This document shows positions 5,788 to 54,147 of a stretch of DNA of 64,000 bases, piece after piece. The notes under the pieces were generated by a model. It had not been told where the DNA came from. It searched no databases and saw only the letters and a list, made by a program, of their open reading frames with translations. The stretch's first letter is position 1, and the number at the start of each line of letters is the position of its first letter. This DNA is from a virus. The translations under genes and the position numbers were made by a program. The DNA is taken from IMG/VR virus record IMGVR_UViG_3300026457_000013, positions 18,253 to 82,252 of that record. The stretch is one strand, 5' to 3'.

Positions 5788-6537
5788 ATGTATATTAGAC
5801 AGCAAGATATAAAAACCTTAGAACTGGATCACCTAGCCAATCAAGCTACTGAATCAATTGAAACCTGGGTAAAAGACAACAATCTTTGCAACCATGCTAG
5901 CTGGCTACTACCACAGCTGGTAAATTGGTTTGGCAGCTGGCAACTCTACAATGACGGTAAAACTACTGTAGCCAAAAATTGCACCAATAATTGGGCTCGT
6001 GCCATTTATAGGATTAGTCGTGTAAAGCGTAGCTTGCTCATTAGAACACAAACTAAACTGCCACAGTATGGGCAGCTAACTCCACTCCTTATGTTAGGAT
6101 TTAAGCGCTATCAAGGTTATAGCTATGAACAATTTCGTGAAATCGAGGGCTTAGAGTGGTTGCTGGAACCTGATTTATATGAATCACTAGTAAATATAGA
6201 GCCTATAGACCTTAGCCAAAACAGACTACTAGCTATACGCACTCAAGGGTTAATTACAAAAAGCGGATCAAAAACTGGTGAGCTTAAAAATCCAGAGAGT
6301 ACTTGGTCACTAACAGGTATCAAGGACACTGAATTAGGCAACTACCCTAAACTTGTGCAAACTATGGTTTGTCAAATTTGGCTAGCACATCCCAAGCATC
6401 GTAACAGTGACATGATCTTAGACCCTAATAATTGGGATGCAATGCCTAAACCATTAATAGATGATACAAGCGGCATTGTTAGTGTATCCAAGGAATCGAC
6501 CAAGGTGCTAACACGCGAGATATTGCCATGGGACTAA
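5788..6537 (+). CDS. hypothetical protein (249 aa)
   Basis: Long ORF with genome-typical codon use; no family recognised. Confidence 0.75.
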   Translation: MYIRQQDIKTLELDHLANQATESIETWVKDNNLCNHASWLLPQLVNWFGSWQLYNDGKTTVAKNCTNNWARAIYRISRVKRSLLIRTQTKLPQYGQLTPLLMLGFKRYQGYSYEQFREIEGLEWLLEPDLYESLVNIEPIDLSQNRLLAIRTQGLITKSGSKTGELKNPESTWSLTGIKDTELGNYPKLVQTMVCQIWLAHPKHRNSDMILDPNNWDAMPKPLIDDTSGIVSVSKESTKVLTREILPWD

Positions 6538-6597
6538 TTATAGTTGATAGTTTAGTTACTAACAATTTTAATAATATAACGATTTAGGGTCAAAATT

Positions 6598-6909
6598 ATG
6601 AAATACAACAAGGAACTAACTGACAAGATTGTGGAGCAGTATAAAAGTGGTCAAACCGCTAAACAAATAGCAGAAGGTCTTGGCGTCGCTGACCGTAGCA
6701 TAATTGCCAAGCTGAGCAGTTTGGGTGTCTACCAAAAAAAGACGTATGTCAACAAACGTGGTGAGGTGCCCATCAAGAAGTACGAGATGATCGAACGATT
6801 GGCCGAATTGTTGGAGGTGCCAAGCGATCAGCTGGAGAGTTTGGAAAAAGTCAACAAAAACGTACTTAAATTGCTTGAAAACCGCTTATCTGACCCTAAA
6901 CCGCAATAA
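6598..6909 (+). CDS. T5 A2-like DNA-binding protein (paralog 1)
   Basis: HTH followed by RSIIAKLSSLGVYQKK and ESLEK, resembling T5 A2 from memory. Confidence 0.7.
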   Translation: MKYNKELTDKIVEQYKSGQTAKQIAEGLGVADRSIIAKLSSLGVYQKKTYVNKRGEVPIKKYEMIERLAELLEVPSDQLESLEKVNKNVLKLLENRLSDPKPQ

Positions 6910-6940
6910 TCGTCGATAATCCAGCTAAATTCTAGCCAAT

Positions 6941-6967
6941 AAGCCCTGCCTTGTGCAGGGCTTTTTT
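6941..6967 (+). terminator. intrinsic terminator
   Basis: AAGCCCTGC-CTTGT-GCAGGGCTTTTTT. Confidence 0.85.
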
Positions 6968-7015
6968 ATTGTGTGACATAGTGGGTTTCTGCGGTTTAGG
7001 GTCAGAATTATTTAC

Positions 7016-7045
7016 TTGACTTGGGTCAGGGATTTGCACTATAAT
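7016..7045 (+). promoter_or_regulatory. promoter TTGACT-18-TATAAT with no downstream gene, followed by TTGGCGC
   Basis: Degenerate member of the repeated module. Confidence 0.6.
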
Positions 7046-7246
7046 GTTGGCGCAGACCCCCAAGATTTTGCACTTGTGGAGTTTTGGCACTGGCGCAAGC
7101 TCAAAGTTTAGCACTTGAGTTTTTGCACTGGCGCAGCACCACTGGTGGTGTGCTAAGTTCTAGAACGTATAATGTTATGGACCCTAAACCGTTATGGTTT
7201 ATATAATTTAGCATGGTTACAGAAATTGGTACGTTATAGAAACTAA

Positions 7247-7328
7247 CCGACCAGCGGCGGCTTAGGGTCGACAAACGGTGGCATTTTCGCTTGACACCCA
7301 CGCAAATTTTATGGTAAAATTTGGCGCC
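7247..7328 (+). promoter_or_regulatory. repeated module 1: box pair + TTGACA-18-TAAAAT + TTGGCGCC
   Basis: CCGACCAGCGG-N10-TCGACAAACGG-N12-TTGACA. Confidence 0.8.
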
Positions 7329-7370
7329 ATATCGTTATAAATTATATAAATCATAACCTGGCCAATCGAC

Positions 7371-7475
7371 CCGACCAGTGGCAGTTAGCGGCTGATGAAC
7401 GGCAGGAAAAACGCTTGACACCCGCGCAATTATACTAGTATAATTGGCGCCACCGCTATAAAAAATATAGCGGTG
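7371..7475 (+). promoter_or_regulatory. repeated module 2: box pair + TTGACA-18-TATAAT + TTGGCGCC + hairpin
   Basis: CCGACCAGTGG-N10-CTGATGAACGG-N12-TTGACA; CACCGCTATA/TATAGCGGTG hairpin. Confidence 0.85.
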
Positions 7476-7508
7476 CAAATTCTATATTTTATAACCGTTA
7501 TGTGAAAA

Positions 7509-7540
7509 ATAACGGCCCGCTCGGGGCCGTTATGGTTTTT
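7509..7540. terminator. bidirectional terminator
   Basis: ATAACGGCCC-GCTCG-GGGCCGTTAT flanked by A and T runs. Confidence 0.7.
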
Positions 7541-7546
7541 AGAATC

Positions 7547-7861
7547 CTAGTCTACCAAATCCATTTCCAGCATGTTATCAATTATATAACCTGGAAGCTT
7601 GGTAGTTTCGCAATTCATATAACGCTCTAGGGCTAAGAACTCGCCAATCTTGCGATCAAACTTGTCATTATCAGCGCACCAAGCAAAGCTAACGTCATAA
7701 AATTTAGCATGACGCGCATTGTGCGCACAAGGCATGGCCACAAGAGCGAATCCGTTTTCATCACCCATAGGTGCGCGAGTGTGGACAATTCCGCCAGATT
7801 CTAGAACGTAGGCAAGCAAGTCCTTACGAATGATTTTTTGGTTTTTGGTCATTTTTTCCAT
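7547..7861 (-). CDS. hypothetical pre-early protein
   Basis: AAGGA RBS; 104 aa. Confidence 0.75.
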   Translation of the reverse strand: MEKMTKNQKIIRKDLLAYVLESGGIVHTRAPMGDENGFALVAMPCAHNARHAKFYDVSFAWCADNDKFDRKIGEFLALERYMNCETTKLPGYIIDNMLEMDLVD

Positions 7862-7916
7862 AACAGTAGTTCCTTTTAGAGTTTAGAACGGAACGGGTTT
7901 TGGCCCGTTCCAGTTT

Positions 7917-8243
7917 TTACAGCGGTTTGCTGTTAGCTAAAGCATCGAAAATCGCTTTAAGAGCCGACTTGTTAGCCTTAGTTAGCGATTCTATATCGTT
8001 TTCCGATAGGCGAAGAATCGCGCCGATTGCATCGGCCGTTACATCTTTTTTAACGGGCTTTTCGCCAGTTTTTGTAACGTACTGTTTTGCAACATAAACT
8101 TTCTCGCGCGAAAGTTTCGCTACAATCGAACGAACGGTTTTACCCATAGCCGAAGCAATATCTTCGACCTTGACGCCCGCCTGATAGTCCGCTATAATTT
8201 TAGCGGTTTGCTCGGCGGTATAGTTAACGGCTTTTTCTGCCAT
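7917..8243 (-). CDS. T5 A2-like DNA-binding protein (paralog 2)
   Basis: Start MAEKAVNY with AGGAG RBS; KTVRSIVAKLSREKVYVAK. Confidence 0.8.
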   Translation of the reverse strand: MAEKAVNYTAEQTAKIIADYQAGVKVEDIASAMGKTVRSIVAKLSREKVYVAKQYVTKTGEKPVKKDVTADAIGAILRLSENDIESLTKANKSALKAIFDALANSKPL

Positions 8244-8383
8244 TGCTATAGCTCCTAGAACTGTTGCAGTTTCGACCCCATGTCCCCTGCAACAGAACCC
8301 ATTATACACCTATCTGCCTGGCAGATTGTCGCCCTAGCGACAATTGGCCTACCATTCATCAGGTGGATCAGCGGCAACCCCAC

Positions 8384-8508
8384 CCGACCAGCGGCAGACT
8401 GCATCCGACGAACGGCACCCCGCAGGGCTTGACACGCAGGCAAAAATTATGATATAATTATATCATAATTTTGGCGCCATCGCTCTAAATTCTATAACTT
8501 AGAGCGAT
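8384..8508 (+). promoter_or_regulatory. repeated module 3
   Basis: CCGACCAGCGG-N10-CCGACGAACGG-N13-TTGACA-18-TATAAT; TTGGCGCC; ATCGCTCTAA/TTAGAGCGAT hairpin. Confidence 0.85.
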
Positions 8509-8513
8509 ATAAT

Positions 8514-8547
8514 AAAAAATATAGCGGCTTGTGCCGCTATATTTTTT
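8514..8547. terminator. bidirectional terminator
   Basis: AAAAAATATAGCGGC-TTGT-GCCGCTATATTTTTT. Confidence 0.85.
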
Positions 8548-8935
8548 ATAACGTCCTCACAATTGGTTCGTTTTTATTTATATAATATTCATGGGTTGCG
8601 CTTGGTGGCAAGCCATACTCTAGCATCATGCGCCGCCAATCAGGGCCATGCCAAAAGTCTGTGGGGTCTTCGCCATTAATTATATAATCTGCAACATGGA
8701 TTAGCTCATGCGGTACAATAACGCAAAGCATCTCGGCTTTATAACGGTTAAAAAACTTGCTAGCAAATTCTACCTCATGCACCTCGCAGTGTGCGAGGCC
8801 CGCAGTGCGATACATGCGATTGCTAATTCTAACTTTTGGAACGCTATGCGTTTTTAGTTCTGGCCACAATTCTTGCATAGCAGTCCAGTGTAGGGTAACA
8901 GCGGCTGTTACAACTTTTATCAACGAATCGGCCAT
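8546..8935 (-). CDS. SprT-like zinc metalloprotease
   Basis: RMYRTAGLA, HELIH (HExxH) and HGPDWRRMM. Confidence 0.85.
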   Translation of the reverse strand: MADSLIKVVTAAVTLHWTAMQELWPELKTHSVPKVRISNRMYRTAGLAHCEVHEVEFASKFFNRYKAEMLCVIVPHELIHVADYIINGEDPTDFWHGPDWRRMMLEYGLPPSATHEYYINKNEPIVRTL

Positions 8936-9171
8936 AATTTATACCTCGCAATAATTGTTACAAGAAATAGATTGACGATATAGTTTGCTATAAGAATCAT
9001 ATCGCCTTTGGGCACGATATAGACTGTCATGGAAACCATACCAGTCCACCACATTGTTATAAAACCTAGTGTAAGCCCGTCTGAGTTTTTAGAACGATAG
9101 GATTCAATGGCTTGGGGCAGGGCCGAAGCCCCAAGCAGTATAGAACCTAGAACGCCGAATGTATCAAACAT
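8920..9171 (-). CDS. PQ-loop / SemiSWEET-like 3-TM membrane protein
   Basis: Start MFDTFG; ALPQAIESYRSKNSDGL; three hydrophobic helices. Confidence 0.8.
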   Translation of the reverse strand: MFDTFGVLGSILLGASALPQAIESYRSKNSDGLTLGFITMWWTGMVSMTVYIVPKGDMILIANYIVNLFLVTIIARYKLWPIR

Positions 9172-9856
9172 TGTAATGATCCTTGACCTGAAATTTTTTC
9201 CAATCATAGGGCTCGATCTTATCGCGCCAACCTTTAGAACGTACAATTTTTTGTAGGATTGGAATCTCAAAATCGCGGGCATCCTCAAGGGCAGTGTGGG
9301 GTTCAGTAGTAAGATTACCAGTTACAAAACCTGCAACAGTCTCGGCATCAGTCTTGAACGTCATATTACCTTTATCGGTCGCATTATTAAAACGATGATT
9401 GTCGAGCACAAAACGCTTATACTTTTTGGAACGGCAGATGTTACCTACAGCGGCTTGCCAAAGGCAAAAGCGGCTAGTGAAAGAATCTAGAACGATACCA
9501 GAGTTAGCACATTTGCTAGCGTCGAAGGCGAGATTGTATGCGGTTAGAATAGGGTCATAAGTACCGATACATTTATTAATCCAATTATTTATAGCGGTTA
9601 CCGACGCAAGCATACGTGTACCAGAATCTAGCATGTTCTGATAATTAGCACGACGACGCTCAAGGTTAGCAGAGGCCCAGAAACCGTTATTGTTTTTGTC
9701 ATGGAATAAGGTTGCAGGGTCATAGAACTCACGAACTAGAACGCTACAACTATTGTAAATCTTGCCGTGACGGTCACAAACCACAATGGCAAAATCCATA
9801 ACGGTATCGTTGATAGTCGTTTCAGTATCTAGAACAGCGAAGTATTGTCGTTTCAT
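9164..9856 (-). CDS. DEDDh 3'-5' exonuclease
   Basis: LDTETT, AYNLAFD and HTALEDA; resembles a T5 pre-early gene from memory. Confidence 0.85.
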   Translation of the reverse strand: MKRQYFAVLDTETTINDTVMDFAIVVCDRHGKIYNSCSVLVREFYDPATLFHDKNNNGFWASANLERRRANYQNMLDSGTRMLASVTAINNWINKCIGTYDPILTAYNLAFDASKCANSGIVLDSFTSRFCLWQAAVGNICRSKKYKRFVLDNHRFNNATDKGNMTFKTDAETVAGFVTGNLTTEPHTALEDARDFEIPILQKIVRSKGWRDKIEPYDWKKFQVKDHYNV

Positions 9857-9961
9857 AATTTATAACCTAGTAAATGTGACAGAACCCCTAGTATACCACA
9901 AAATCCGCGCAAGTGCCAGTTTTGGCTGCCGCCCATCGGCTGTGGGCCGCCGCACATCCGA

Positions 9962-10075
9962 CCGACCAGCGGTCGCCAGGAGCCGACGAACGGTCGGCCC
10001 GGGCCTTGACACGCCTGCAAAAATTATGGTATAATTTTTGGCGCCATGGCTATAAATTTTATAATTTATAGCCAT
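9962..10075 (+). promoter_or_regulatory. repeated module 4
   Basis: CCGACCAGCGG-N10-CCGACGAACGG-N12-TTGACA-18-TATAAT; TTGGCGCC; 13-bp hairpin. Confidence 0.85.
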
Positions 10076-10087
10076 AACGTGGAACAG

Positions 10088-10103
10088 TGTTCCACGTGAA
10101 ACC
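10088..10103. promoter_or_regulatory. parS: parS site TGTTCCACGTGAAACC, with adjacent half-site ACGTGGAACA at 10077-10086
   Basis: 15/16 match to the bacterial consensus TGTTNCACGTGAAACA. Confidence 0.8.
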
Positions 10104-10306
10104 TAAACTTTGTGCAAACTATCCCAAATTGCAAGATTACGCTGTGCCATTTTTTGGTACAATTCAGCGCCTACCAAGTGGCCGCGACTAATATCGTTTC
10201 TAGAATATTGTAAATATCGTTCTGCATTTTCTAACAACATGCGACTAGCAAGTTTGTGCCAAAACGTAGAACGATTGGCTAGGTCTTTCCAATATTGCTC
10301 GCTCAT
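10103..10306 (-). CDS. hypothetical pre-early protein
   Basis: GAGGA RBS; overlaps upstream stop. Confidence 0.7.
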   Translation of the reverse strand: MSEQYWKDLANRSTFWHKLASRMLLENAERYLQYSRNDISRGHLVGAELYQKMAQRNLAIWDSLHKV

Positions 10307-10488
10307 ACTAATTCCTCAGGTAAACTGTTATATTCTTTATAAAGGCTATCGTACATTCTAATAACCCAACCTATATCGTTCCAATCGCTAACCGTTCCAA
10401 AATCTGGACGATAGCCGTATATATCAAAATACAGATCGCAAAATTTGTCCTGCATTGCCCAAAGTTCTATAGCCTTTACATTTTTCAT
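10303..10488 (-). CDS. hypothetical pre-early protein
   Basis: Start MKNVKA after AAGGA; D.Y.DIYGYRP motif. Confidence 0.7.
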   Translation of the reverse strand: MKNVKAIELWAMQDKFCDLYFDIYGYRPDFGTVSDWNDIGWVIRMYDSLYKEYNSLPEELV

Positions 10489-10489
10489 A

Positions 10490-10966
10490 TCAATGTCCTT
10501 GTTTGCTTGGAACATAAACGCCCCTAATGTTAAAGTAATCACAAACCGCTTTAAGATATGCTACATTATCCTCATAAAATACAGCGTCATTAAAATGATA
10601 ACCTAAATTGCTATACAATTTGAAAATCCGTTTTAGTCCTTCAATCTTGAGAGTAGCACCAGAACGGTTATCATTTTCATTACGGCTAACTATATGGTCA
10701 GGTGTACCTAGTCTGCTATAAATAAATGCACGATCAGGGTTCCGCAAAATGCGGGCAGTAGCAATAACAACAATACAGTAGGGATCATCGAGATCGTTTT
10801 TATATTGTTCTGCAAGTGGTAACAGTGAATCCTCCAGTGCGCGATATTCATTAGCACGCCAGTAGTCGAGGTCAATGCGCTCAATACCGTTATCAACAAT
10901 GGTACGATACCTGTGCATACTGCAAACGATTGTGCCATCCATGTCATAGATTGCTATCCTTTTCAT
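10490..10966 (-). CDS. HAD-superfamily phosphatase
   Basis: IYDMDGT, IATAR, conserved K and YEDN motifs. Confidence 0.85.
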   Translation of the reverse strand: MKRIAIYDMDGTIVCSMHRYRTIVDNGIERIDLDYWRANEYRALEDSLLPLAEQYKNDLDDPYCIVVIATARILRNPDRAFIYSRLGTPDHIVSRNENDNRSGATLKIEGLKRIFKLYSNLGYHFNDAVFYEDNVAYLKAVCDYFNIRGVYVPSKQGH

Positions 10967-11172
10967 AACCTATATCCTTATAAAGTCTAGAATGTTGTAA
11001 GGTTTAACTTGTCTGCCCTTGCCCTATCGGCCCTATCCGAGGGTAGGCGGGGTTACTAGCCGCCTAGAGTCATGCCCTACAACAGAAACAAGTATACCTG
11101 AATTTTTGAGGTCAAATGTCGTCCAAGCGACAATTGCCTACCATCCATACCTTACAGCCTGCCACACATCAG

Positions 11173-11283
11173 CCGACCAGTGGTCGACCCTACCCGATGA
11201 ACGGCGGCCCTGGGGCTTGACACGGCTGCAAATTATATGCTATAATTTGGCGCGTCAGCGCTCTAAGTTCTATAACCTAGAGC
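11173..11283 (+). promoter_or_regulatory. repeated module 5
   Basis: CCGACCAGTGG-N10-CCGATGAACGG-N12-TTGACA-18-TATAAT; TTGGCGC; GCTCTA/TAGAGC hairpin. Confidence 0.85.
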
Positions 11284-11285
11284 AG

Positions 11286-11301
11286 TGTTTCACGTGAAAC
11301 T
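11286..11301. promoter_or_regulatory. parS: parS site TGTTTCACGTGAAACT
   Basis: Perfect 14-bp palindrome GTTTCACGTGAAAC; 15/16 match to consensus. Confidence 0.85.
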
Positions 11302-11411
11302 GTATCGTGCTAAAAACCATAGCATGCCCATAACGTACAACCACAGCATCATCATAATAATGTTTCTATAATTCATATCGTTATAGTAGGGGCTTGCGCC
11401 CCTACCCCTTG

Positions 11412-11738
11412 CTAGTCGGCAGATTGCCTGATAAAATCGCTGATTGCACGCAGTGCGCTCTTGTTAGCTTTCGTTAACGATTCTATATCGTTCTCTGAGA
11501 GCTTGAGAGCTGCGCCGATAAAATCAGCGTGAACGTCTTTTTTGATGGGGCTTTCGCCGTTCTTGGTTCTATATTCTTTAGCGACGTAAACCTTTTCACG
11601 GCTGAGCTTTGCTACAATTGAGCGAACAGTCTTGCCCATTGCTTGTGCAATTTGCTCAACGCTAACACCGGCCTGATAGTCGGCCACAATCTGAGCAGTT
11701 TGCTCAGGGCTATAATTAGGGGCTTTGGCTGTTGCCAT
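11412..11738 (-). CDS. T5 A2-like DNA-binding protein (paralog 3)
   Basis: Highly similar to 7917-8243; AGGAG RBS. Confidence 0.85.
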   Translation of the reverse strand: MATAKAPNYSPEQTAQIVADYQAGVSVEQIAQAMGKTVRSIVAKLSREKVYVAKEYRTKNGESPIKKDVHADFIGAALKLSENDIESLTKANKSALRAISDFIRQSAD

Positions 11739-11771
11739 TTCAGCTACTCCTGTTGTGTTGAAAGAAACTCT

Positions 11772-11845
11772 AGTATAGGCTAGTTGTAGTGCTAAGTCAA
11801 GTAAAAAATCTTACCGCTCGTCGGCCAGTAACTACCATTGGTCGG
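11772..11845 (-). promoter_or_regulatory. promoter TTGACT-17-TATACT with the same upstream box pair, driving A2-like paralog 3
   Basis: Minus strand CCGACCAATGG-N10-CCGACGAGCGG-N13-TTGACT. Confidence 0.8.
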
Positions 11846-12018
11846 CTTAACACAGTTATAAACTTTACTACAAGTTTTGTGCTAAGTTATAGAACTTATA
11901 CCGACCAGGGGCGGTTGTTAGACTTTATATAACTTATAGCGGTGGGGCCCTCGCTTACGGCCTATCATTAAAAATTTTTCGAAAAGACCAAGGTGCCAAA
12001 TCCGACCCTAAACCGTAC

Positions 12019-12063
12019 CAACAGCCACAACAGCCACAACAGCCACAACAGCCACAACAGCCC
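12019..12063 (+). repeat. tandem repeat (CAACAGCCA)x4 plus one imperfect copy
   Basis: Read directly from sequence. Confidence 0.95.
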
Positions 12064-12084
12064 ACTGCCCAAAAAATTTTCAAC

Positions 12085-12114
12085 TTGCCTAACAACTACC
12101 ACCCATGATATACT
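12085..12114 (+). promoter_or_regulatory. promoter TTGCCT-18-TATACT for the terminase genes
   Basis: Extended -10 TGaTATACT; A/T-rich UP element. Confidence 0.65.
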
Positions 12115-12134
12115 CCAATAAACTGGAGAAACCA

Positions 12135-12605
12135 ATGACTACACACCTACCAGCCGAAACCCTACAAATCTCACCAGAAGCACTGGAAGTAGCCAACTGC
12201 TATCTTCAGCTTAATGATGCTAAAAGGGTAGCCCATGAACTAAGCCTACATCCAGACCAAGTCACACAAATCTTAGGTCGCCGCGAGGTCAAGCAGTATA
12301 TTGACCAAGTATTCTTTGACATGGGCTACAACAACCGATTTTTAATGCGTCAGGCAATGGATGCACTAATCAAGCAAAAGTTTTCTGAGTTGGAGGAAGC
12401 TGGTGTTGGATCTAGCAAAGATATTGCAGACTTATTACACCTGTCGCATAAAATGTCAATGGATCTCCTAGACAAGCAATTGCAGCTGGAAAAGCTGCGC
12501 ACACAAGCTCCAGGCCCACAAAAGCAGGTGAACGTGCAAATCAATGATGATGGCAGCAAGTATTCGCAGCTTATACATAAACTTGTGAGTGGAGACGGCA
12601 TATGA
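12135..12605 (+). CDS. terS: terminase small subunit (T5-like)
   Basis: ISPEALEVANCYL and VFFDMGYNNRF; GGAG RBS; upstream of terL. Confidence 0.85.
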   Translation: MTTHLPAETLQISPEALEVANCYLQLNDAKRVAHELSLHPDQVTQILGRREVKQYIDQVFFDMGYNNRFLMRQAMDALIKQKFSELEEAGVGSSKDIADLLHLSHKMSMDLLDKQLQLEKLRTQAPGPQKQVNVQINDDGSKYSQLIHKLVSGDGI

Positions 12606-12700
12606 GTGCCCTATGGTTCACCCTAAACTGTATCGGCCTTAGCATCTTAATAACAATAGCACTAGCGGAACTCATCCATGCTCGTAGTAAGCAGAAATAA
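12602..12700 (+). CDS. 32 aa membrane peptide MSALWFTLNCIGLSILITIALAELIHARSKQK
   Basis: ATGA overlap with terS stop; hydrophobic helix with basic tail. Confidence 0.4.
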   Translation: MSALWFTLNCIGLSILITIALAELIHARSKQK

Positions 12701-13967
12701 CGTAGAAACAGAGTACATTAAGGAGTTTGATCCTACCAAGCGATTTATCAAACTGCCTATCGACAACTACTTACGACTCTTAAATCTATACGATACCATC
12801 AACAGGCCCCAAATCGCACTAATCAATAGTGTTAATGATCCACAGTATAGGTTTATCTGTGCTGCACTTGCCAGACGATTGGGCAAAACATACATAGCCA
12901 ATGTTATAGGTCAGCTGGTTACACTAGTACCCAACAGTAATGTACTTATCATTAGCCCTAACTATAATTTGAGTGCAATCAGTTTTGAGCTGCAGCGTAG
13001 GTTAATCAAGCATTTTGACCTGGAAGTAACCCGTGATAACCTCAAGGACAAGATTATTGAGCTCAGCAATGGATCAACTATCAGAATGGGATCTATTAGC
13101 ACAGTGGATTCAACAGTTGGTCGTAGTTATGACCTTATAATATTCGACGAGGCTGCACTTAGTGAGCATGGCGAGGACGCATTTAACATTGCCTTACGCC
13201 CTACACTAGACAAACCATCGGCAAAAGCCATATTTATTAGCACACCACGTGGTAAAAACAACTGGTTTTCAAAGTTCTGGTCGCGTGGATTTGACCCTAA
13301 CTTTCCAGAGTGGGTTAGTTTGCAGGCAGATTATTCGGAGAATAGCCGCATGGCACAGTCGGATGTTGATGAAGCACGTAGATCCATGTCGAAGTCGGAG
13401 TTTGAGCAGGAATATATGGCAAGTTTTACTAGTTACTTAGGCCAAATTTATGAAGGGTTTAAGCCTGAGTATATCCTAGACCAACTACCAGACCTGCGCG
13501 GTGAAGCTATTGCTGGTGTAGATGTAGGATACAAGGATGCCACTGCCTGGGTTAACATAATATACGACTATAATACCGACTGTTTTTATGCTGTAGAAGA
13601 TTATTTGGAGCCAGAGCGTACTACTAGAGAACATGCCGAACATTTTCATAGAATGATAGATAGTTGGAGTATACAAACTGTATTTATTGATAGTGCAGCA
13701 GCACAATTTGCTGCTGACCTAGCTTACAACTACGATATTGCTACTACTAAAGCTAAAAAAGACGTACTTGCAGGCATTGCATACGTGCAAACACTAGTCC
13801 AGCAAGGCAGATTTAGGGTACACAGAAATTGTCACCACGTTATAGCTATGCTAGATGCTTATCAGTGGGATAACCGCGAAAATTTAGCGCGTGAACGTCC
13901 TAAACACAACGAGTACAGTCACATGGCTGATGCTGTTCGTTATGCACTATACAGTTATGTAGTATAG
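12678..13967 (+). CDS. terL: terminase large subunit
   Basis: Walker A ARRLGKT, Walker B IIFDEAA, ISTPRG, nuclease HMADAVRYA. Confidence 0.95.
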   Translation: MLVVSRNNVETEYIKEFDPTKRFIKLPIDNYLRLLNLYDTINRPQIALINSVNDPQYRFICAALARRLGKTYIANVIGQLVTLVPNSNVLIISPNYNLSAISFELQRRLIKHFDLEVTRDNLKDKIIELSNGSTIRMGSISTVDSTVGRSYDLIIFDEAALSEHGEDAFNIALRPTLDKPSAKAIFISTPRGKNNWFSKFWSRGFDPNFPEWVSLQADYSENSRMAQSDVDEARRSMSKSEFEQEYMASFTSYLGQIYEGFKPEYILDQLPDLRGEAIAGVDVGYKDATAWVNIIYDYNTDCFYAVEDYLEPERTTREHAEHFHRMIDSWSIQTVFIDSAAAQFAADLAYNYDIATTKAKKDVLAGIAYVQTLVQQGRFRVHRNCHHVIAMLDAYQWDNRENLARERPKHNEYSHMADAVRYALYSYVV

Positions 13968-34204: not shown

Positions 34205-37200
34205 ATGGCATTAACAATTACACCAGGTCCAAAATCTTTAGAATTATATTTTACTGTACCCACAGGCAAGATATATATTGATGATGATACTAACAGTCCT
34301 CTATCTACTCAGGTAGAGGAATTAGTACAGCGCGATGACCTAGTTAACTTAAAAGTTTGGGCTAGTACAACTAGTGGTTTTACACCAGATGCTAGTACAC
34401 TAAAATATGACGCTACTTTTCAAAGCAAGCTAACACTAACAGATTTATTAGCTAATACAACCTATTATGTAAAGTACGCCTATATTAGTAAAATAGATCC
34501 TGATAGTTATACTATATCAGCTCAATCAAGTGCTACTACAGAAAGCGGAGTAGCACTACTAACACTTGACCCTACTGATTGGGCTTTTATTTTTGATAAT
34601 AATTTGGCTACCACAGCCAATTATCCCGCTAGTATTACGTTTACCGCAAATAAACAAAATATAACAGGTGCAGTAACATTTACAGCTACTGCATATAATA
34701 GTAGTAATACTAGTTTAGGCAGTATTACACTAACTGGCACCGGCGATATTAGAACACTTACTGCAGCTAACTTTAATAGCTTAGGCACAACTACAGTTAG
34801 ATATGTAAAAGTAGTTGCTACGCTAGGAACACTTAGTGATACTGTGACTATTTGGCGTGGTGATAATGGTAGTGATGCACTAACATTTTTATTAACTAAT
34901 GAATCACATACAGTACCAGCAGATAGTAGTGGTAGTGTAACTAGTTATACTGGTGCAGTTACATATGCTGCAATATTTCGTGGCATTACTAATGAAACAA
35001 GTTTATGGACTATTACTAAAAGTGATGGGACCGGTTTAACGACCACATTAACTGGCACAGGCACTAGTAATATAACGCTTACTGTCAACACATTAGCTAG
35101 TGGAACAGATAGTGCAATTAGCACAATTACTGCTACTAGAACAGGTTACCCTACATTAACAAAAGACTTTTCTATTAGTAAAAGTAAGGCGGGTACTAAT
35201 GGAACCAATGGTTTACCAGGAGCCACAGGTCCAACCGGCCCACAAGGTAATCCAGGCAGTGCCGGTACAACTGGACTAGAGGGTATACGTACTATAACAG
35301 CCTATAGATTACGTAGTCAAAGTGATGCACTACTAACAACAGCACCCAGCAATACTAGTGGTGCAACCGCTCCTGTAGATTATAGTCTAACAGCACCTAG
35401 TGCTACAGTTGGTCAAGTAGTTTGGTATAGTTTTGGCAGATATAATCCTAATGCTACTACCTTAGAAAGCATACCAGCAAATACTACAATATGGAGTGTA
35501 CCAATTGCTGCTAGTGTATTTCAAGATATACGCAGTGATAACTGGACTGGAGGCACACCTAGTGGCGGTACATTTACTAGCAATACAGGATATTATTTAA
35601 ACAGAACTGAAGGAAGCTTATACGCTACTAATGCATATTTACGTGGTCAATTAGTAACAGGTGTAAGTGGTGCTCAGCGCATTGAAATAAATAAAACTGA
35701 TGCTAATAAAGTAGCTATTTATAATAATTCCGATGAATTACTAGGTTATTTTGGTGGTCTTGGAACAAGCGCTTCACCATTACTAAATCTTACTCCAGTA
35801 TTAGGACTTTTTAATGTTGTATATGGAGCTATAACCGTACTTCCAAATCCTGCTGGTACAATAGGCGAATCCGCCGCTTATTTTGCTAGAACTATAGACT
35901 CAACAATTACTAGCGAACTAGGCAGTTGGACTACCAATTATGGCGTAACAGTAAAAAAAGGTGCCTATGGTTCCGTTAATTATGGATACCTAGCACAAGG
36001 ATATTTAGGATACTCTGACTCATCTAGTTATAGTGCGGCCGGTAGATTTTATAATGCTCAAGGTGGTACAGAAGTTTCAATTGGTGATTCAGCCGGATAT
36101 GCATTAAATATTCGTAGCGGAACTTTTAGATATGGTAGTGTAACTATTAGTGCGCCACCTAATAATACTACAACATATTTACGTGCTGATGGTACTTGGA
36201 GTAGTGTTTCTGGTTTACCTAGTGGTGGCACAGCTACACAAGTATTAATTGGTAACGGTACTTGGACTGATAGTCCACAACTTGTAAATCCTGCTGCAAG
36301 TGGTGGTTATTATGGTATTAGTGCTGGAGTTAGTAAGAAAATCTTAGACTATGACAATAGTGCTATGGCAACTATTGTTGGCAGAGAGATAACTAATGGT
36401 GGCTTTGTAATAACCAGTAATGCCGTTAGACCATTACAATTACGCAGCACAGCAGTAACAGATCTAGGAACTACCAGTGGTGGCGACTACACTTTTAGAA
36501 ACTTTGGTTGGGGCGGGTACCTAATACCTCCACCACCAGGCGGCACTGGCTCATTTTTACGAAGTGATGGTACCTGGGGCACAGCCAGCGGGCCACAAGG
36601 ACCTACAGGTCCAACAGGGCCGCAGGGCATAGCCGGTCCAACAGGCCCACAAGGTACGCAAGGTACGCAAGGAGTAGCAGGTCCTACAGGTCCACAAGGT
36701 ACGCAAGGAGTAGCAGGTCCTACAGGTCCACAAGGTACGCAAGGTACGCAGGGCACTCAAGGTACACAGGGAGTAGCAGGTCCTACAGGTCCTACAGGTG
36801 CAACTGGTACGGTTAGTGCCGGTACACTTACTTCTAACCTTACATTTCAAAAAGATGTACCCCAAATACTATTAAGATCAGCAGGTGCTGCAACACAGTG
36901 GTATATAGGTGCTAATATCAGTGATGGTGTAAATGACGGAATTCATATTGGTCAAGGTACAGGCATTGGCGGAACGCTAAGAGTAAATATAGATTATTTA
37001 GGTCGTATTAAAGTTCCAGAAGTATATAATACTACAGTAACAGGTCGCGATGTTTATGTAGATAGTTCAGGTATGCTTGGTTACTTAAGTTCAACACGTG
37101 CTAGTAAGACTAACATTAGCCCATTACCTAATACTAATTGGATATATAATCTGCAGCCAATAACTTTTAATTTTAAAAAGAAAGATAAGCTTGGTAGATA

Positions 37201-37402
37201 TACTAGTGATATAGAAACAGATATACAATATGGTTTAATTGCTGAGGATGTAGAGTTGGTAAATGACGAATTATGTATTTATGATATAATCGACGGTAAA
37301 AAAATTCTACAAGGTATTAGTTATTCAAAACTTATAGTTCCACTAGTAAAAGCAATTCAAGAGCTCAAATTAGAAATTGAATTGCTAAAAACACAAGTAT
37401 AA
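34205..37402 (+). CDS. tail fibre with collagen repeats and C-terminal peptidase S74 chaperone
   Basis: GPTGPQG repeats; [18 protein letters not shown] and [15 protein letters not shown]. Confidence 0.85.
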
Positions 37403-37416
37403 ATATTGGAGTTAAA

Positions 37417-37719
37417 ATGAATTGGTCAATTATTAGATTAGAGGTTAAACCAAGTTACAATAATTTGCAAGATGTTGTAGTTTTAGTAAATTGGATGCTT
37501 ACAGCATCTAACAATGGTGTTACAGAAACTATAGAAGGTATTACACTAGTTGATCCACCAGGTGAAGTGTTTGTAGCCTATGAAAACTTAACACAAAATG
37601 AAATTTTTGATTGGGTATGGAACAAAATAAGTAAAACTGGAACAGAGGAATTATTAACTCAAAGAATACAAGATAAAATTACACCACCAACCGTTAATAA
37701 ACCACTACCGTGGAACTAA
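37417..37719 (+). CDS. tail fibre-associated small protein
   Basis: FVAYENLTQNEIFDWV and C-terminal PLPW; GGAG RBS. Confidence 0.7.
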   Translation: MNWSIIRLEVKPSYNNLQDVVVLVNWMLTASNNGVTETIEGITLVDPPGEVFVAYENLTQNEIFDWVWNKISKTGTEELLTQRIQDKITPPTVNKPLPWN

Positions 37720-37846
37720 ACAAATAAATTATATTAGATAATTAAAAAATTTTACATAACAAAACTACTATGACCTGGCGACTGAGCTGACTAAACCAAC
37801 TTGGATACCGCAAAAGGGTCTATAAAGAACTGAAAAAGTTCACGGT

Positions 37847-37884
37847 AATGCCCTGCTTAATATTGATTAAGCAGGGCATTTTTT
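37847..37884 (+). terminator. intrinsic terminator
   Basis: AATGCCCTGCTTAAT..ATTAAGCAGGGCATTTTTT. Confidence 0.85.
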
Positions 37885-37888
37885 ATAG

Positions 37889-37917
37889 TTGACAACCTCT
37901 TGCCCTTGTGCTATAAT
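37889..37917 (+). promoter_or_regulatory. promoter TTGACA-17-TATAAT for the accessory fibre operon
   Basis: Consensus; shares CCCTTGTGCTATAAT with the 23288 promoter. Confidence 0.85.
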
Positions 37918-38041
37918 ATACAAGAGTCAAAAAAGGTTTAAATATTTTTACTTGACAATAAGCAGTGCCACTAAAACACAGTTGGCAGCCTAGCTACAAC
38001 TAAACTTGTATCTTAATCACTGCTAACAAATAGGAGCTGCA

Positions 38042-38386
38042 ATGGAAGTCGTAGAAAATCACAGCCTGGTACAAACAATTAGCGTAGCAGCTATGGCTAT
38101 AATTGCACTATCAGTAGGAGTGCAAAAATTATTAAAAGACTGGCGTAGTACTGATGCAGAAACAAGTGTAATCAAGATGATGCATGAAGAGTTGGAGCGC
38201 ATGGGCCAGCATAATAGTAAGCTTACTGAAGAATTAACTAAGCTACAATTAGATATAGTTGAATTAAACAGTCAACTAACTAAACTTAGCATTGAAAATA
38301 ATAAGTTGCAGGAAGAAATTGCTGCGCTTACTACGGAGTTAAATAGTTTTAAGAAACTGGCAGCTCTTAGAAAGGTAAAGGTCTAG
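38042..38386 (+). CDS. membrane-anchored coiled-coil protein (holin-like candidate)
   Basis: One N-terminal TM segment then heptad repeats. Confidence 0.55.
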   Translation: MEVVENHSLVQTISVAAMAIIALSVGVQKLLKDWRSTDAETSVIKMMHEELERMGQHNSKLTEELTKLQLDIVELNSQLTKLSIENNKLQEEIAALTTELNSFKKLAALRKVKV

Positions 38387-38387
38387 T

Positions 38388-38987
38388 ATGGTTCCTGCAA
38401 AAGTTAATTATAAAATTTATCAGGGTACTACCTTTAAACAAGTATATCGCTGGGAAACCGATACCAAGTATTATGCTAATGTACAGTCTATAAGTAAGAG
38501 CGGACCTTGTATAATTACTACTAGTGCCGCACACAGTATACCACCTGGATGGCGTATTAGAATTACCAATGTTGGTGGTATGAAAGAAATTAATAGTACT
38601 GGTGATGATGATTATCATTTTGTTAATAATGTTACAGCCAGCACATTAACTGTTAATAGTATTAATAGTAGTGGCTATACTAATTATACTACTGGCGGAA
38701 CAGTAGAGTATTATGCTCCTTATCCGCTGCAATACTATAGTGCTGTATTACAAATTAGAGCAAATGTTAATAGTGATACAGTTATACTAGCACTAAATAG
38801 TGGAGCTGGTGGAGGCATTGTACTAGATACAAATAATAGTACAATAACAGTTACATTAACTGCTCAACAAACAGCGCAATTTAACTTTACTACTGCCGTT
38901 TACGGCATGGAATTAACAGATACTAGTGGCAATGTAACTCCGTTTATTGCTGGCAATATAACTGTGGTAAAGGATGTAATACGATGA
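38388..38987 (+). CDS. virion fibre-attachment protein (BppU N-terminal-like)
   Basis: [24 protein letters not shown] and GNITV pattern. Confidence 0.6.
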
Positions 38988-41533
38988 GTATTGTACAAAC
39001 TAATACCAGCACTATTGTAATTGATAATACACAAACCAGAGTTATTGCCGGCGGCATGATGGGCCCAACTGGGCCAGCCAGTACCGTAGTCGGTCCCACA
39101 GGGCCAACAGGTGCTCAAGGTATTGCAGGTCAGGGTATTAGTGTTAAAGGTACTGCAGCTACAGTAGCTGGTCTACCTAGCAGTAATAATCAAGATGCTG
39201 ACGCCTATATAGTAACACAAAATAATCACCTATATGTTTGGCAGGCTAGTACTAGTACTTGGATTGATGCTGGTGCTATTGTAGGACCACAAGGTGCTAC
39301 AGGTGCTATAGGCCCAACAGGTGCCACAGGCGTTATGGGTCCCACAGGTGCAGCTAGTAACATAGTAGGACCTACAGGTGCTACAGGACCCACAGGACCA
39401 ACAGGAGCAGCTAGCACTATAGCAGGTCCTACAGGACCTACAGGTGCTCAAGGTAACACAGGACCTACAGGTGCTCAAGGTGCAGCTAGTACTATAGCAG
39501 GACCTACAGGTCCACAAGGTCAAGGTGTACAATTAAAAGGCAGTGTTGCTACTGTTGTGCAATTACCTGCTAGTAATAATACAGTAGGTGACAGTTATGT
39601 TGTTACTCAAGATGGTCACCTATATGTATGGACAGGTAGTACCTGGGCAGACAGCGGTCAAATACAAGGTGCCACAGGCCCTACAGGTGCACAAGGTCAA
39701 CAAGGTGCTACAGGTCCTACAGGTCCTACAGGGCCAGTAGGTATACAAGGGGTACAAGGCCCAGCTAGCACAGTGCCTGGCCCTACAGGTAGCACAGGAC
39801 CTACAGGTGCACAGGGTATACAAGGGGTACAAGGCCCTGCCAGCACTGTGGCAGGCCCAACAGGACCTACAGGTGCACAAGGTATACAAGGTGTTCAAGG
39901 CCCAGCTAGTACAGTAGCAGGACCAACAGGGCCTACAGGCAGCACTGGACCTACAGGAGCTCAAGGTGCAGCTAGTACAGTAGCAGGACCTACAGGACCT
40001 ACAGGTGCTCAAGGTAACACAGGTCCACAAGGTGCAGCTAGTACAGTAGCCGGACCAACAGGGCCTACAGGCCAACAAGGTCAACAAGGTCCAGCAGGCC
40101 CAACAGGTAGTGCTAGCACTGTAGCAGGTCCTACAGGTCCCACAGGTGCAGCAGGTGCTCAAGGTATAGCAGGCACAGCAGGTGCAGCAGGTCCCACAGG
40201 CCCTACAGGAGCCAGCGGCGCTAGTGGCAGTCAAGGTGTGCAAGGGCCTACTGGTGCACTTGGACCACAAGGTCCTACAGGACCCACAGGTGCCAAAGGC
40301 AATGATGGTACCAGTGTACAAATTATTGGTAGTGTGGCTAGTGCAAGTAATATACCAGGATACCCTAATACGCATACAGGTGCTATAGGCGATGCTTACT
40401 TAGTAACCGCTGACAGTCATCTTTGGGTATGGACAGGTACTACGTGGCAAGATGTAGGAGTAATTAGTGGACCAACAGGTAGTACAGGTCCTACAGGTGC
40501 CACAGGTGCAGCTAGTACAGTAGCAGGTCCTACAGGTCCTACAGGTAATACTGGTCCACAAGGTATTAATATTACACTGCGTGGCGAAGTTGCACAAGTA
40601 GCTAACCTACCAGCCAGTAATAACACAGTTAATGATGCCTACATTGTTACTAGCACTGGACACTTATGGGTGTGGAATGGCAGTAACTGGTTTGATGCTG
40701 GCACAATTGTTGGACCACAAGGTCCTACAGGACCAGCTAGTACTGCACTAGGTCCTACAGGTGCTCAAGGTCTGCAAGGTCCAGCAGGACCTACAGGTCC
40801 CACAGGTGCTATAGGTCCACAAGGTGTTGTTGGTCCTACAGGTCCTACAGGTCCACAAGGTGCGGCTAGCACAGTAGCTGGTCCTACAGGTGCTCAAGGT
40901 GCACTTGGTCCCACAGGACCCACAGGTGCACAAGGTGCAGCTAGCACAGTAGCAGGTCCTACAGGTCCTACAGGTAGTATAGGTAATACAGGCAACACTG
41001 GTCCAACAGGACCAACAGGCCAACAAGGTACAGTAGCATTTACTTTTAGCGATACTGCACCAGTTAGTCCACAACTAGGTGATAGATGGATTGAAAGCAG
41101 TACTGGTATTGAGTATACTTATATAAATGATGGTAACTCACTACAGTGGGTAGAAACTAGAAACGGTTCACTAATTGGACCACAAGGTCCTACTGGCCCT
41201 AGTCAAAATCTTACACCCTATACTAGCGCAAATACTGGTGCGTTCAATCTTAGTAACAGCAATTATCAAATTTGGGCAGTTACTGGCGGTAATTACACTG
41301 TAAGTTTTACTAATTGGTTGGCTAGTGGTCAACTAACAGAATTGTTAATAGAAGCTCAAAATGTACAATCTAGTGGTGCAGTGATTACTTGGCCTACAAT
41401 AAACTGGATTAAGAGTGATGGCTCACTAACTACAACTTTTAGTCAATCTGGCATAGTTTTAACTAACTTAGACTTTATATTAATTTGGTCCAGAGATGGC
41501 GGAACCACTATTTATGGAAAGGTTATTAGATAA
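38984..41533 (+). CDS. collagen-like fibre protein
   Basis: Long Gly-X-Y (GPT) tracts separated by four LP..N..DAYIV...HLxVW modules. Confidence 0.9.
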
Positions 41534-41578
41534 TGAATAATACGCTTTCTATAAGAGTTATTAAGCATTGGAAAAATT

Positions 41579-43339
41579 ATGCCAGATATTAATTTTCCAT
41601 CAAATCCTAGTGTTAATGATACCTATAGCTTTAATGGACGTACTTGGAAATGGAACGGCAAAGGCTGGGAATCATTAAACACAGGTCAAGGAGTTCAAGG
41701 ACCAACTGGGCCAACTGGTCCGGCTAGTACAGTAGCAGGCCCTACAGGTGCACAAGGTATAGCAGGTCCTACAGGTCCTCAAGGTGCAGCTAGTACAGTA
41801 GCTGGTCCCACAGGGCCACAAGGTAGTGCAGGAGCAGCAGGACCTACAGGTCCTCAAGGTGCAGCTAGTACTGTAGCAGGTCCAACAGGACCACAAGGTA
41901 GTGCAGGTCCTACAGGTGCTAGTGGAGCAGCAGGACCCACAGGACCACAAGGTACAGCAGGCAGTGCAGGACCCACAGGACCACAAGGTACAGCAGGCAG
42001 TGCAGGACCCACAGGACCACAAGGTACAGCAGGTACAGCAGGTCCTACAGGTGCACAAGGTACAGCAGGCCCTACAGGTGCAGCAGGTCCAACAGGTGCC
42101 ATAGGACCAACCGGTGCACAAGGTGCAGGCAGCGCAGTTAGTGTTAGTGATGAAGGCACACTGTTAACTAGCAACGTAACTAGCTTTAATTTTGTTGGCA
42201 GCGGAGTAACCGCAACTAATACTAGTGGAGCAGTTACAGTTACAGTTAGTGGTGGCGGTGGTAGTGGAGCTACTTATGCTATTAGTGCTGAAACAGCCAC
42301 AGGCGGTGCTAACTTACGATTAACTGGCAGCGATGCTAGCACAGACGACGTTAAATTACAGGCTGGCGATAATGTAACCATTACTAGAAACGACGCAAAT
42401 ACTATTACTATTGCTAGTACTGGTGGTGGGGGTGGTAGCAGTGGACCAGTCTTAGAAACTAGCCAAACTATTACTACACCATATATAATTACTAATGGTA
42501 AAAACGCGCTAAGTGTTGGACCAGTAACTATTGGTGCAGGTGCTAGTATTACTATACTACCAGGTCAACGTTGGTTAGTAGCTGGCGATACTGGCATGTC
42601 TAGCAGTGTTACTGGTGTAGGAGGTGCTAGCGGCACTGTGCAAAGTGTAAATATATCTGGTGGAACCACAGGTCTTACAGCGACTGGCGGACCTATAACC
42701 ACTACAGGAACTATTACGCTTGCTGGTACTTTAATTCCTGCAAATGGTGGTACAGGACAAACAACTTTTACTAATGGTCAATTATTAATTGGTAACTCTA
42801 CCGGCAATACACTTACTAAAGCAACCCTAACCGCTGGTTCAGGCATAGATATTACTAATGGTAATGGTTCTATTACAATTGCTTTATCGGCTGGTGGTGG
42901 GGTAGCATATTCAACTTATACGTATACCGGAGACGGTAGTACAACCACATTTGCCGCCGTTAGCGGAATTACTGTAAATAATATTCTAGTATTAGAAAAC
43001 GGTGTTACACAAGTACCAACTACTGATTATACTGTTTCAGGTAGTAATGTAGTATTTACCACTGCTCCTGCAACCGGTGTGAACATTCAGATTCGTGTAA
43101 TGGGTGGAGGCGGTGGCGGTAGTGTACAGCAAATATCAACTGGTGCTGGATTAACTGGCGGACCAATTACTACTACAGGAACTGTTAGCCTTGCCACCAG
43201 CGGCGTTACCGCAGGCAGTTATACAAATGCTAATATTACAGTAGATACTTATGGTAGAATTACTTTAGCAGCTAACGGTAGCGGTGGTGGAATAACAACA
43301 GGAAAGGCTATTGCCATGGCAATGGTATTTGGAGGATAA
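41579..43339 (+). CDS. collagen-like fibre protein
   Basis: INFPSNP..TWKWNG N-terminus; GPT tracts; fibre repeats. Confidence 0.85.
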
Positions 43340-43340
43340 T

Positions 43341-43712
43341 ATGGCAGCACCAAATATAGTCAATGTTACAACCATTATTGGTAAAACCGTTGGTAAGGCC
43401 CTTACTGCAAGTTTATTAGATATAGTAACTAATAGTGCAGCCAGTAATAAAGTATTTAAGATAAATAGTATTATTGTGTCTAACGTACACGGAACTAATA
43501 ACGCCGAAGTTAATGTAGTATTTTATGATAGCAGTGAAGGTGCTGGAACAAATTTTTATCTAGCTAAAACAATAATTGTACCTGCCGATTCCAGCCTTGT
43601 AGTTATTAGCAAAGATGCTAATATTTATCTAGAAGAAGGTGATATAGTTCGTGCACAAACTACAGCTACTAGCCTACTAGAAATAGTAGTAAGTTATGAG
43701 GAGATTAGCTAA
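43341..43712 (+). CDS. virion structural protein (MAAPNIVNV-type)
   Basis: GGAGG RBS before 43341; beta-rich. Confidence 0.75.
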
Positions 43713-45733: not shown

Positions 45734-45741
45734 GAGGGTCT

Positions 45742-45996
45742 ATGACAACAAAGGTATTTAGGTTTCTGGGGATTGACACAGCCATGCACTTGCTTCGTCC
45801 GGGTGCTAAGTGGGAAATCTCTAACAACGTCTTTACACGCTGGGATGATCCTAGACCTTGTCCGAGTATTGAAGAAGTCTATTGGGTGATAGACAAGATC
45901 AGAGAGTTTGAAGATTCAATCCCTACGATCTGGCTACCTGAACAGTTAGAAGAAATGGGCATCAAGCAAAAGGAAATTGAAGATGCAATTGCATAA
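45742..45996 (+). CDS. XkdW-like small protein
   Basis: LRPGAKW..WDDPRPCPS. Confidence 0.55.
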   Translation: MTTKVFRFLGIDTAMHLLRPGAKWEISNNVFTRWDDPRPCPSIEEVYWVIDKIREFEDSIPTIWLPEQLEEMGIKQKEIEDAIA

Positions 45997-46585: not shown

Positions 46586-46588
46586 CCT

Positions 46589-46951
46589 ATGGCACATTTT
46601 GCAAAAATTGACGAAAATAACCTAGTTACTCAAGTAGTTGTTGTAGACAATCGTGATACTAGTGATAGTAGTGGTGTTGAGCGTGAGCATATTGGTGCTG
46701 CTCACTTAGAAAAAATTCTTGGTGGAACTTGGCGGCAAACTAGTTATAACGGCAATTTTCGCAAAAACTATGCTGGCATAGGTTATACTTACGATAGCGT
46801 AAGAAATGCATTTATTCCACCTAAACCGTTTAACAGCTGGCAATTAGACGAACAAACGTGTCAGTGGACAGCACCTCAACCATATCCACAAGATGGACAA
46901 ATGTATAGTTGGAACGAAAATACCACAAGTTGGCAAAGGACTGAACTATGA
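46589..46951 (+). CDS. fibre-associated small protein
   Basis: [26 protein letters not shown]; paralog at 60104. Confidence 0.75.
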
Positions 46952-47154
46952 CAACCAAAATCAATGATAAAAATATTGCTACAACTGGTGTTACAGCAGG
47001 CAGTTATACTAATGCTAATATCACAGTAAACAGTCAAGGGCAAGTTACACTAGCAGCTAATGGTACTGCTGGAGGTGGTAACACAGTAATTGATGGCGGA
47101 TTTCCAGATTCTAGCTATCTATCTATACTGGCTATTGATGGAGGTACTATCTAA
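46948..47154 (+). CDS. small fibre-repeat protein
   Basis: [14 protein letters not shown] shared with 41579-43339. Confidence 0.65.
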
Positions 47155-54143: not shown

Positions 54144-54147
54144 AAAT

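Follow-up and report, generated by a model that had tools for sequence, protein, structure and literature searches.

We analysed a 64,000-nucleotide stretch of viral DNA (the window; bases 18253–82252 of the 82,252-bp linear IMG/VR record IMGVR_UViG_3300026457_000013, here G000, which CheckV estimates to be 78% complete) around two 16-mers that match parS, the chromosomal loading site of the bacterial partition protein ParB. parS-A (TGTTCCACGTGAAACC; 10088–10103) is non-coding and adjoins the stop codon of an open reading frame (ORF) at 10103–10306(−), and parS-B (TGTTTCACGTGAAACT; 11286–11301) has a 14-bp core that is a perfect palindrome. Each agrees with the consensus TGTTNCACGTGAAACA at 15 of 16 positions, the last base being the single mismatch in both. 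An earlier note, made from the sequence alone, had placed both 16-mers at these positions and had seen no further one in the 64 kb. With as many as two mismatches allowed, the window indeed holds only these two places (four strand-wise matches), and the same is true of the full record, where the remaining 18 kb outside the window contains no third parS-like site. Dinucleotide-preserving shuffles yielded a mean of 0.15 matches at the same threshold and reached four in 1 of 100 shuffles; the match to parS is far beyond chance. One base upstream of parS-A lies an extra inverted half-site, ACGTGGAACA (10077–10086), the reverse complement of the first 10 bases of parS-A. Across the 82 kb we counted 28 half-sites against 18.4 expected, with no clustering besides the two sites and this extra half-site.

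Both sites close a module that is repeated on the + strand, running from a GC-rich leader through a promoter-like element, TTGGCGC(C/G) and an AT-rich hairpin to parS. The two copies align with 78% column identity, which bears out the earlier remark that the sites sit at the same position of a repeated module, just after a promoter and hairpin. The promoter-like elements (10006–10035 and 11217–11246) both score 12/12 as TTGACA-N18-TATAAT. Cassette A (10006–10073, +) consists of a −35 element at 10006–10011, a −10 element at 10030–10035, GGCGCC at 10040–10045 and the hairpin at 10048–10073; cassette B (11217–11283, +) has the corresponding elements at 11217–11222, 11241–11246, 11249–11254 (GGCGCG) and 11260–11283. 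The distance from GGCGC to parS is 44 nt in A and 33 nt in B. As predicted promoters, the two cassettes aim at their parS sites and against the neighbouring genes: the credible genes around the sites all lie on the minus strand, so the strong promoters oppose them. More copies of the promoter and hairpin, these without parS, lie at about 7016, 7291, 7415 and 8429. Between 7016 and 11246 the + strand carries six consensus or near-consensus sigma-70 cassettes, four scoring 12/12 and all opposing the intervening minus-strand genes. The copy at 7415 and its terminator are covered by a sub-threshold match to Rfam family RF03532 (‘cis-regulator of HTH transcription factor’, HTH denoting helix–turn–helix; 7427–7552(+), 32.3 bits against a gathering score of 100, E 0.008).

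By gene content and gene order the phage is T5-like (Demerecviridae-type), as the earlier note had supposed. Ten of 13 T5 late proteins (terS, terL, T5.153, portal, protease, major capsid protein, adaptor, neck, tail terminator and tail tube) match G000 in T5 order, terL with 46% identity (E 1.8e-123), and the closest cultured TerL proteins, at 48% identity, are those of T5-like Vibrio phages. The T5-collinear structural block begins with terS (12105–12605, +) and continues with terL (12678–13967, +). A megablast search of 9000–13000 against cultured phages gave no match, and a scan of the window for tRNA genes was negative. Farther downstream (35200–47400 and 42200–61200) the large tail or fibre genes include long arrays of collagen-like (Gly-X-Y) and glycine-rich repeats, as well as modules of ~650–700 bp that are repeated. 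Near-identical DNA was found in 20 river runs (20 study codes), with at least half of the sampled words present in 15 of the 20.

A TerL search of IMG/VR returned 496 relatives, and the best 80 of these (73–100% TerL identity) were taken with up to 10 kb of flank each; 20 of the 80 loci were mapped gene by gene. Two longer related records were also searched, G001 (the record of locus L072; 102,184 bp, 96% complete) and G003 (56% complete). G001 is collinear with G000 in reverse, and both contig ends join within SprT/PQ-loop genes, so that its assembly is effectively circular by synteny and supplies ~30 kb missing from G000.

The parS-like sites recur in these relatives, on one side of the terminase genes only. 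A site at up to two mismatches is present in 31 of the 80 loci, upstream of terL in every one, and downstream of that gene's start not one of the 80 has a site. Missing upstream DNA explains most of the site-less loci: where 1.5 kb or more upstream of terL is retained, 28 of 44 loci have one core site or more, and the figures are 18 of 23 for 3 kb or more and 14 of 16 for 4 kb or more. The earlier note had left open to a scan of relatives whether such sites are conserved and confined; both proved to be so in this set, confinement being to the DNA upstream of the terL start. Among the loci mapped gene by gene, the place of parS-A, between the genes for the 230-residue protein p230 and the Dmp-like phosphatase, carries a site in 13 of the 15 loci holding both genes. 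The place of parS-B, between the Dmp-like gene and the A2-like gene HTH2, carries one in 12 of 16, often as the perfect 16-mer. Copy number per locus ranges from 0 to 4, and G001 has exactly one site, a perfect 16-mer, with none elsewhere in its 102 kb.

What is conserved is the site itself. With up to two mismatches allowed anywhere, only positions 1, 5, 12 and 16 vary, plus position 8 in one locus, and within the core free variation is limited to the N of the consensus and its symmetric partner. Position 1 is T in 44 of 48 unique contexts, a base for which the core search pattern did not select. Contexts of the parS-A type and the parS-B type (A-type and B-type) have only the parS 14-mer in common; the hairpins occur in several unrelated versions, and the flanks cannot be aligned between groups. 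A half-site of the ACGTGGAACA type is retained in most A-type contexts, with a 3-nt spacer that varies. PMC7022226 (Table 1) gives each of the clade's core variants, GTTTCACGTGAAAC, GTTCCACGTGAAAC and GTTCCACGTGGAAC, as a natural chromosomal parS of one bacterium or another, the genera listed being Bacillus, Streptococcus, Pseudomonas, Myxococcus, Vibrio and Caulobacter. By sequence, therefore, the sites are canonical chromosomal-type parS, as the earlier note had claimed from two copies, and their pattern of conservation indicates that they are selectively maintained.

The association with the backward cassette is likewise a property of the clade. All 93 cassettes in the 80 related loci are oriented as terL, the parS core lies 28–55 nt behind GGCGC in 47 of 87 unique cassettes, and a promoter precedes all 50 of the 50 sites that have enough upstream sequence. 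The short hairpin of the cassette often has a T-run; in relatives without parS the cassette closes in a hairpin and T-run and would yield an RNA of ~40 nt. One alternative reading is that the palindrome works by folding, as a hairpin or cruciform in the nucleic acid by which transcripts of the cassette promoter or of the minus-strand genes are terminated or stabilised. Minus-strand ORFs do have their 3′ ends at the sites, and cassette hairpins do precede the sites; the A-type half-site and the first half of parS together form a 9-bp inverted repeat with a variable 3-nt loop, and some B-type sites extend to a palindrome of ~26 bp. We nevertheless regard a structural role as very unlikely. The sequence does not covary but stays invariant, and with C at position 5 and A at position 12 the most frequent A-type core is asymmetric and would leave a mismatch in the stem. 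By itself the core would fold into a stem of 5 bp closed by a 4-nt loop, with no T-run to follow, cassettes without parS already bear their own hairpin and T-run, and the 14-mer is all that the A- and B-type contexts share. An E-value-mode Rfam search of 6500–12500 returned sub-threshold matches elsewhere and no family at the parS sites.

The same spacing would also suit an operator for some other host factor, which would act as a roadblock switch of the backward promoter and sense the state of the host instead of recruiting its partition proteins: 50 of 50 sites lie 28–55 nt behind the GGCGC of a cassette, in its firing direction. Variants of parS are, however, the dominant tight palindromes in the 87 unique cassettes near terL, where no other tight palindrome recurs besides the hairpin stems and no other recognisable operator is repeated. 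No other bacterial factor specific for this 16-bp sequence is known to us, no search dedicated to one having been made. We give this alternative a slim chance; it merges with a reading in which host ParB binds the sites if ParB itself is the roadblock.

Some of the genes around the sites resemble those of T5 pre-early DNA. Reading rightwards along the minus strand, an SprT-like ORF (8546–8935(−)) and a PQ-loop ORF (8920–9288(−)) are followed by p230 (230 aa, phrog_20187, no Pfam family; 9164–9856(−)). Two small ORFs of no family, p67 (67 aa; 10103–10306(−)) and p79 (79 aa; 10303–10542(−)), lie downstream of the Dmp-like gene and recur in relatives. The Dmp-like HAD phosphatase (phrog_415; 10490–10966(−)) is encoded between the two parS sites; tblastn with T5 dmp matched it at E 2.9e-7 in G000 and 4.6e-12 in G001, and the dmp of Vibrio phage PG07 gave 5.4e-7. 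Next comes a hydrophobic micro-ORF of 28 codons (11290–11376(−)) whose last three codons and TGA fall inside parS-B; it is conserved in relatives as 25–28 codons ending ...ARY[S/C]FT*, and it recalls the single-transmembrane mini-genes annotated beside the right terminal repeat of T5. HTH2 (11412–11738(−); phrog_323/1725), an A2-like double-HTH protein, is encoded 110 bp from parS-B and has paralogues at 7917–8309(−) and 6598–6909(+). Aligned by hhalign, this HTH family matches T5 A2 with a probability of 70% (E 4e-5, 96 columns), and it has 2,555 environmental homologues at E ≤0.001.

In the T5 record NC_005859 the right terminal repeat lies 3 kb from terS, and the left copy is annotated as first-step-transfer DNA, which enters the host first and has dmp as its outermost gene; the collapsed record of PG07 has the order A1-dmp-terS-terL. 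On a collapsed map, T5 first-step-transfer DNA is thus like the region here in having Dmp, A2-like genes and strong host-type promoters just upstream of terS. That the region around the parS sites is homologous to T5 pre-early DNA is supported, since the sites flank a Dmp homologue, adjoin A2-like genes and lie just upstream of terS as in T5 and PG07. The region differs from that of T5 in that the genes lie on the strand opposite to the strong promoters and no homologue of A1 was found, neither T5 A1 nor PG07 A1 giving a match in G000 or G001. p230 might be a stand-in for the A1-linked degradation of host DNA in T5. A protein atlas places p230 near RNase_T-type 3′–5′ exonuclease clusters (score 0.94–0.95), a lead only.

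Contig depth adds a hint about the ends of the genome. In Logan contigs of one DNA run (X1) depth is 38–50 over about 7524–11640, 26 to the left and 20–22 from 12191 onwards, where the well-conserved terS and terL lie, these values being contig means from a run that may be the source sample and so weak evidence. They outline a block of ~4.6 kb with about twofold depth and approximate boundaries (~7540–12140), a candidate terminal repeat and pre-early region. A collapsed terminal repeat of ~4.6 kb is only hinted at by this depth, and it is plausible that the block is the terminal repeat and enters first. Of the earlier proposal that the sites lie in first-injected, terminally repeated DNA, the pre-early context (Dmp, A2-like genes, proximity to terS) is accordingly supported, and the terminal repeat is at present a suggestion of the twofold depth.

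Proximity to the terminase genes raises the question of a packaging or terminus signal read by terminase from sites 0.8–2 kb upstream of terS. The sites are near terS/terL in every relative and inside the candidate terminal repeat, as such a signal might be. They are nonetheless absent from two loci, L073 and L078, whose TerS is 71–74% and TerL 73–74% identical; their number varies from 0 to 4; and, instead of marking the approximate depth boundary at 12140, they lie ~840 and ~2,040 bp within the block. T5 and PG07, unlike the phage here, have no parS-like site in the stretches examined. A packaging role is in our view extremely unlikely.

A reader of the sites encoded by the phage itself was sought with Pfam models. 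ParB_N, HTH_ParB, AAA_31 and CbiA had no match at E ≤1 in G000, G001 or G003, and Phage_integrase (tyrosine integrase) and Resolvase had none in the same three records; control searches for these families were positive in 9–14 of 14 reference genomes. The earlier observation that the window shows neither parA/parB nor lysogeny genes therefore extends, for the families searched, to the whole record and to a 96%-complete relative, and the phage-encoded ParAB that it had considered might exist elsewhere was found in none of the three records. Collinearity with T5 and the lack of any integrase or resolvase match suggest a virulent-type phage.

A phage-encoded DNA-binding protein other than a recognisable ParB could still use the palindrome as its own operator, the identity with parS then being mimicry or coincidence; such a protein might be one of the A2-like double-HTH family, the product of a small local ORF or a ParB that has diverged beyond detection. 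Three A2-like paralogues in the region, one of them 110 bp from parS-B, a site near +50 relative to a strong promoter, where a roadblock operator could plausibly sit, and the 22% of the genome that is unseen all lend this some credit. The distribution of candidates and sites is hard to reconcile with it. L073 and L078 retain A2-like genes, Dmp, p230 and the cassettes without the site, T5 has A2 and no parS-like site at up to three mismatches in the two stretches examined, and in L072 and L081, which do have a site, neither p67 nor p79 was detected. The predicted HTH2 structure (predicted local distance difference test score, pLDDT, 84) does not resemble ParB: its best Foldseek rows against the PDB are weak matches to bipartite transposase-type HTH domains (Tc3/IstA type), with no match at E ≤0.001 and no ParB among the best rows, and a sequence search of the PDB gave chance-level matches only. 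The 96%-complete relative has no ParB_N or HTH_ParB match, and the variants that the sites tolerate are exactly those of bacterial parS. We judge a phage operator unlikely, if worth keeping in mind.

We consider it reasonably probable that the two 16-mers are loading sites for host ParB on a T5-like phage in which no ParB or ParA of its own was found. Given the identity of the sites with parS, their conservation and the lack of any phage par gene among those searched for, host ParB is the most economical reader; that it binds here we infer from established ParB–parS biochemistry and from the precedent of phage phi29. On this reading, once the DNA is in a cell that contains ParB, host ParB dimers would nucleate at the one to four sites, close as cytidine triphosphate (CTP) clamps and spread, and a host partition complex would form on the pre-early, probably first-entering, DNA of the phage. 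The promoter or the hairpin would probably shield parS from read-through or bound the sliding of ParB on one side. According to PMC7333895, one parS is often enough for segregation.

Several observations weigh against loading of host ParB or limit it. L073 and L078 share the gene order and the cassettes and lack any site, and L072 and L081 have only one, so the sites are dispensable; the absence from L073 and L078 marks the element as an accessory that has come or gone during the history of the clade. The conserved micro-ORF ends inside parS-B, so coding constraint could explain part of its conservation, although the wobble positions, the four bases after the micro-ORF stop and the non-coding A-type sites are equally invariant. 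In some relatives the palindrome is longer, at ~26 bp, as would also be expected of a hairpin or of a more extended protein-binding site. For a terminal repeat the evidence is the contig depths of one run, possibly the source sample. Of G000, 22% is missing, and a phage ParB too divergent for Pfam may exist. Labels of metagenome-assembled genomes for five contigs with a TerL relative are discordant as to the host (Pseudomonadota, Saccharibacteria, Verrucomicrobia and Methylococcaceae). Separately, the NCBI names of two HTH2 homologues (Betaproteobacteria, Oxalobacteraceae) were considered as a pointer to the host and set aside as too weak.

The closest precedent is the Bacillus phage phi29, which is virulent. 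Its genome is described in PMC2731898 and PMC9437464 as having five parS sites for the host protein Spo0J, and Spo0J is said to be involved in segregating the phage genome into the prespore, both sources crediting Meijer et al. 2005. Our scan of the 19,282-bp genome found four perfect consensus matches, at 10445, 15903, 17243 and 18760. Like the phage here, in which no par gene was found and which is probably virulent as well, phi29 carries several copies of a host-type parS and has no ParB or ParA of its own. Its sites, however, occupy the interior or the ends of genes 10, 15, 16 and 17 and are spread over the right half of a 19-kb protein-primed genome, whereas here one to four sites lie at gene ends, behind a backward cassette, in the pre-early region of a T5-like genome of ~100 kb. 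The role in phi29, prespore segregation, requires a sporulating host, whereas the cultured relatives of the phage here infect Gram-negative bacteria.

Orphan sites are not confined to these two phages. The perfect 16-mer occurs in at least 119 viral stretches in IMG/VR, none of which, among the matches listed, is a close relative of the phage here. Of 50 perfect-parS records among the matches listed, two have a ParB_N match, as does one of the 14 that are at least 90% complete. Several of the perfect-parS records are complete genomes of 15–18 kb with inverted terminal repeats and two to four perfect sites. One of these records, L161 (15.9 kb, inverted terminal repeats, three perfect sites, no ParB_N match), is phi29-like, encoding upper and lower collar proteins, a major head protein, an encapsidation ATPase and a polymerase of the protein-primed type. 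The novelty implied by the earlier note is in this respect overstated, in view of phi29 and the many other viral contigs that have parS and no ParB_N match: a virulent phage with orphan host-type parS for host ParB is already known. A literature search found no paper on host-type parS in a T5-like or Gram-negative virulent phage. What is new here is the phage family, the strict coupling to a backward promoter–hairpin cassette and the confinement to pre-early DNA and, probably, the host type.

Two further systems help to place the sites. Chromosomal complexes of parS, ParB (Spo0J) and CTP use the same 16-bp palindrome, including its natural variants; in contrast with a chromosomal centromere, the sites here are on a phage record, with no origin or parAB operon adjacent and no ParA or ParB found. 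Plasmid prophages of the P1 type are temperate, encode their own ParA and ParB and use element-specific sites. They too have centromere-like sites on a phage genome. The locus here differs from such cassettes in that no par, integrase or resolvase gene was found and in that the site is the universal one of the host. Partition cassettes of P1-type prophages are mentioned in PMC12704722.

As to purpose, our first guess, modelled on phi29, would be coupling to the host ParABS and SMC machinery for positioning, retention or inheritance during a stalled infection, and retention of this kind would suit slow-growing river bacteria. Titration of ParB by replicating phage DNA would be a second guess, and a ParB roadblock that tunes the antisense promoters comes third in preference. 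A bolder scheme makes host ParB a substitute for A1 in second-step transfer: loaded within the first 1–2 kb of the entering genome, spreading clamps and ParB condensation, together with SMC/ParA, would reel in, compact or position the DNA, with the backward promoter as a one-sided barrier that directs the clamps. We would put little faith in this scheme.

If host ParB does load here, co-option of the partition machinery by virulent phages would not be limited to phi29 and sporulation and would recur in a large, abundant freshwater clade of T5-like phages, with 496 TerL relatives in IMG/VR. Orphan parS may be a general phage strategy, since 48 of the 50 perfect-parS IMG/VR records among the matches listed have no ParB_N match. 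The host of the phage would be constrained to lineages with ParB. One 16-mer and one host protein would then give a handle on the first-entering DNA, on the backward cassettes and on persistence in slow-growing hosts.

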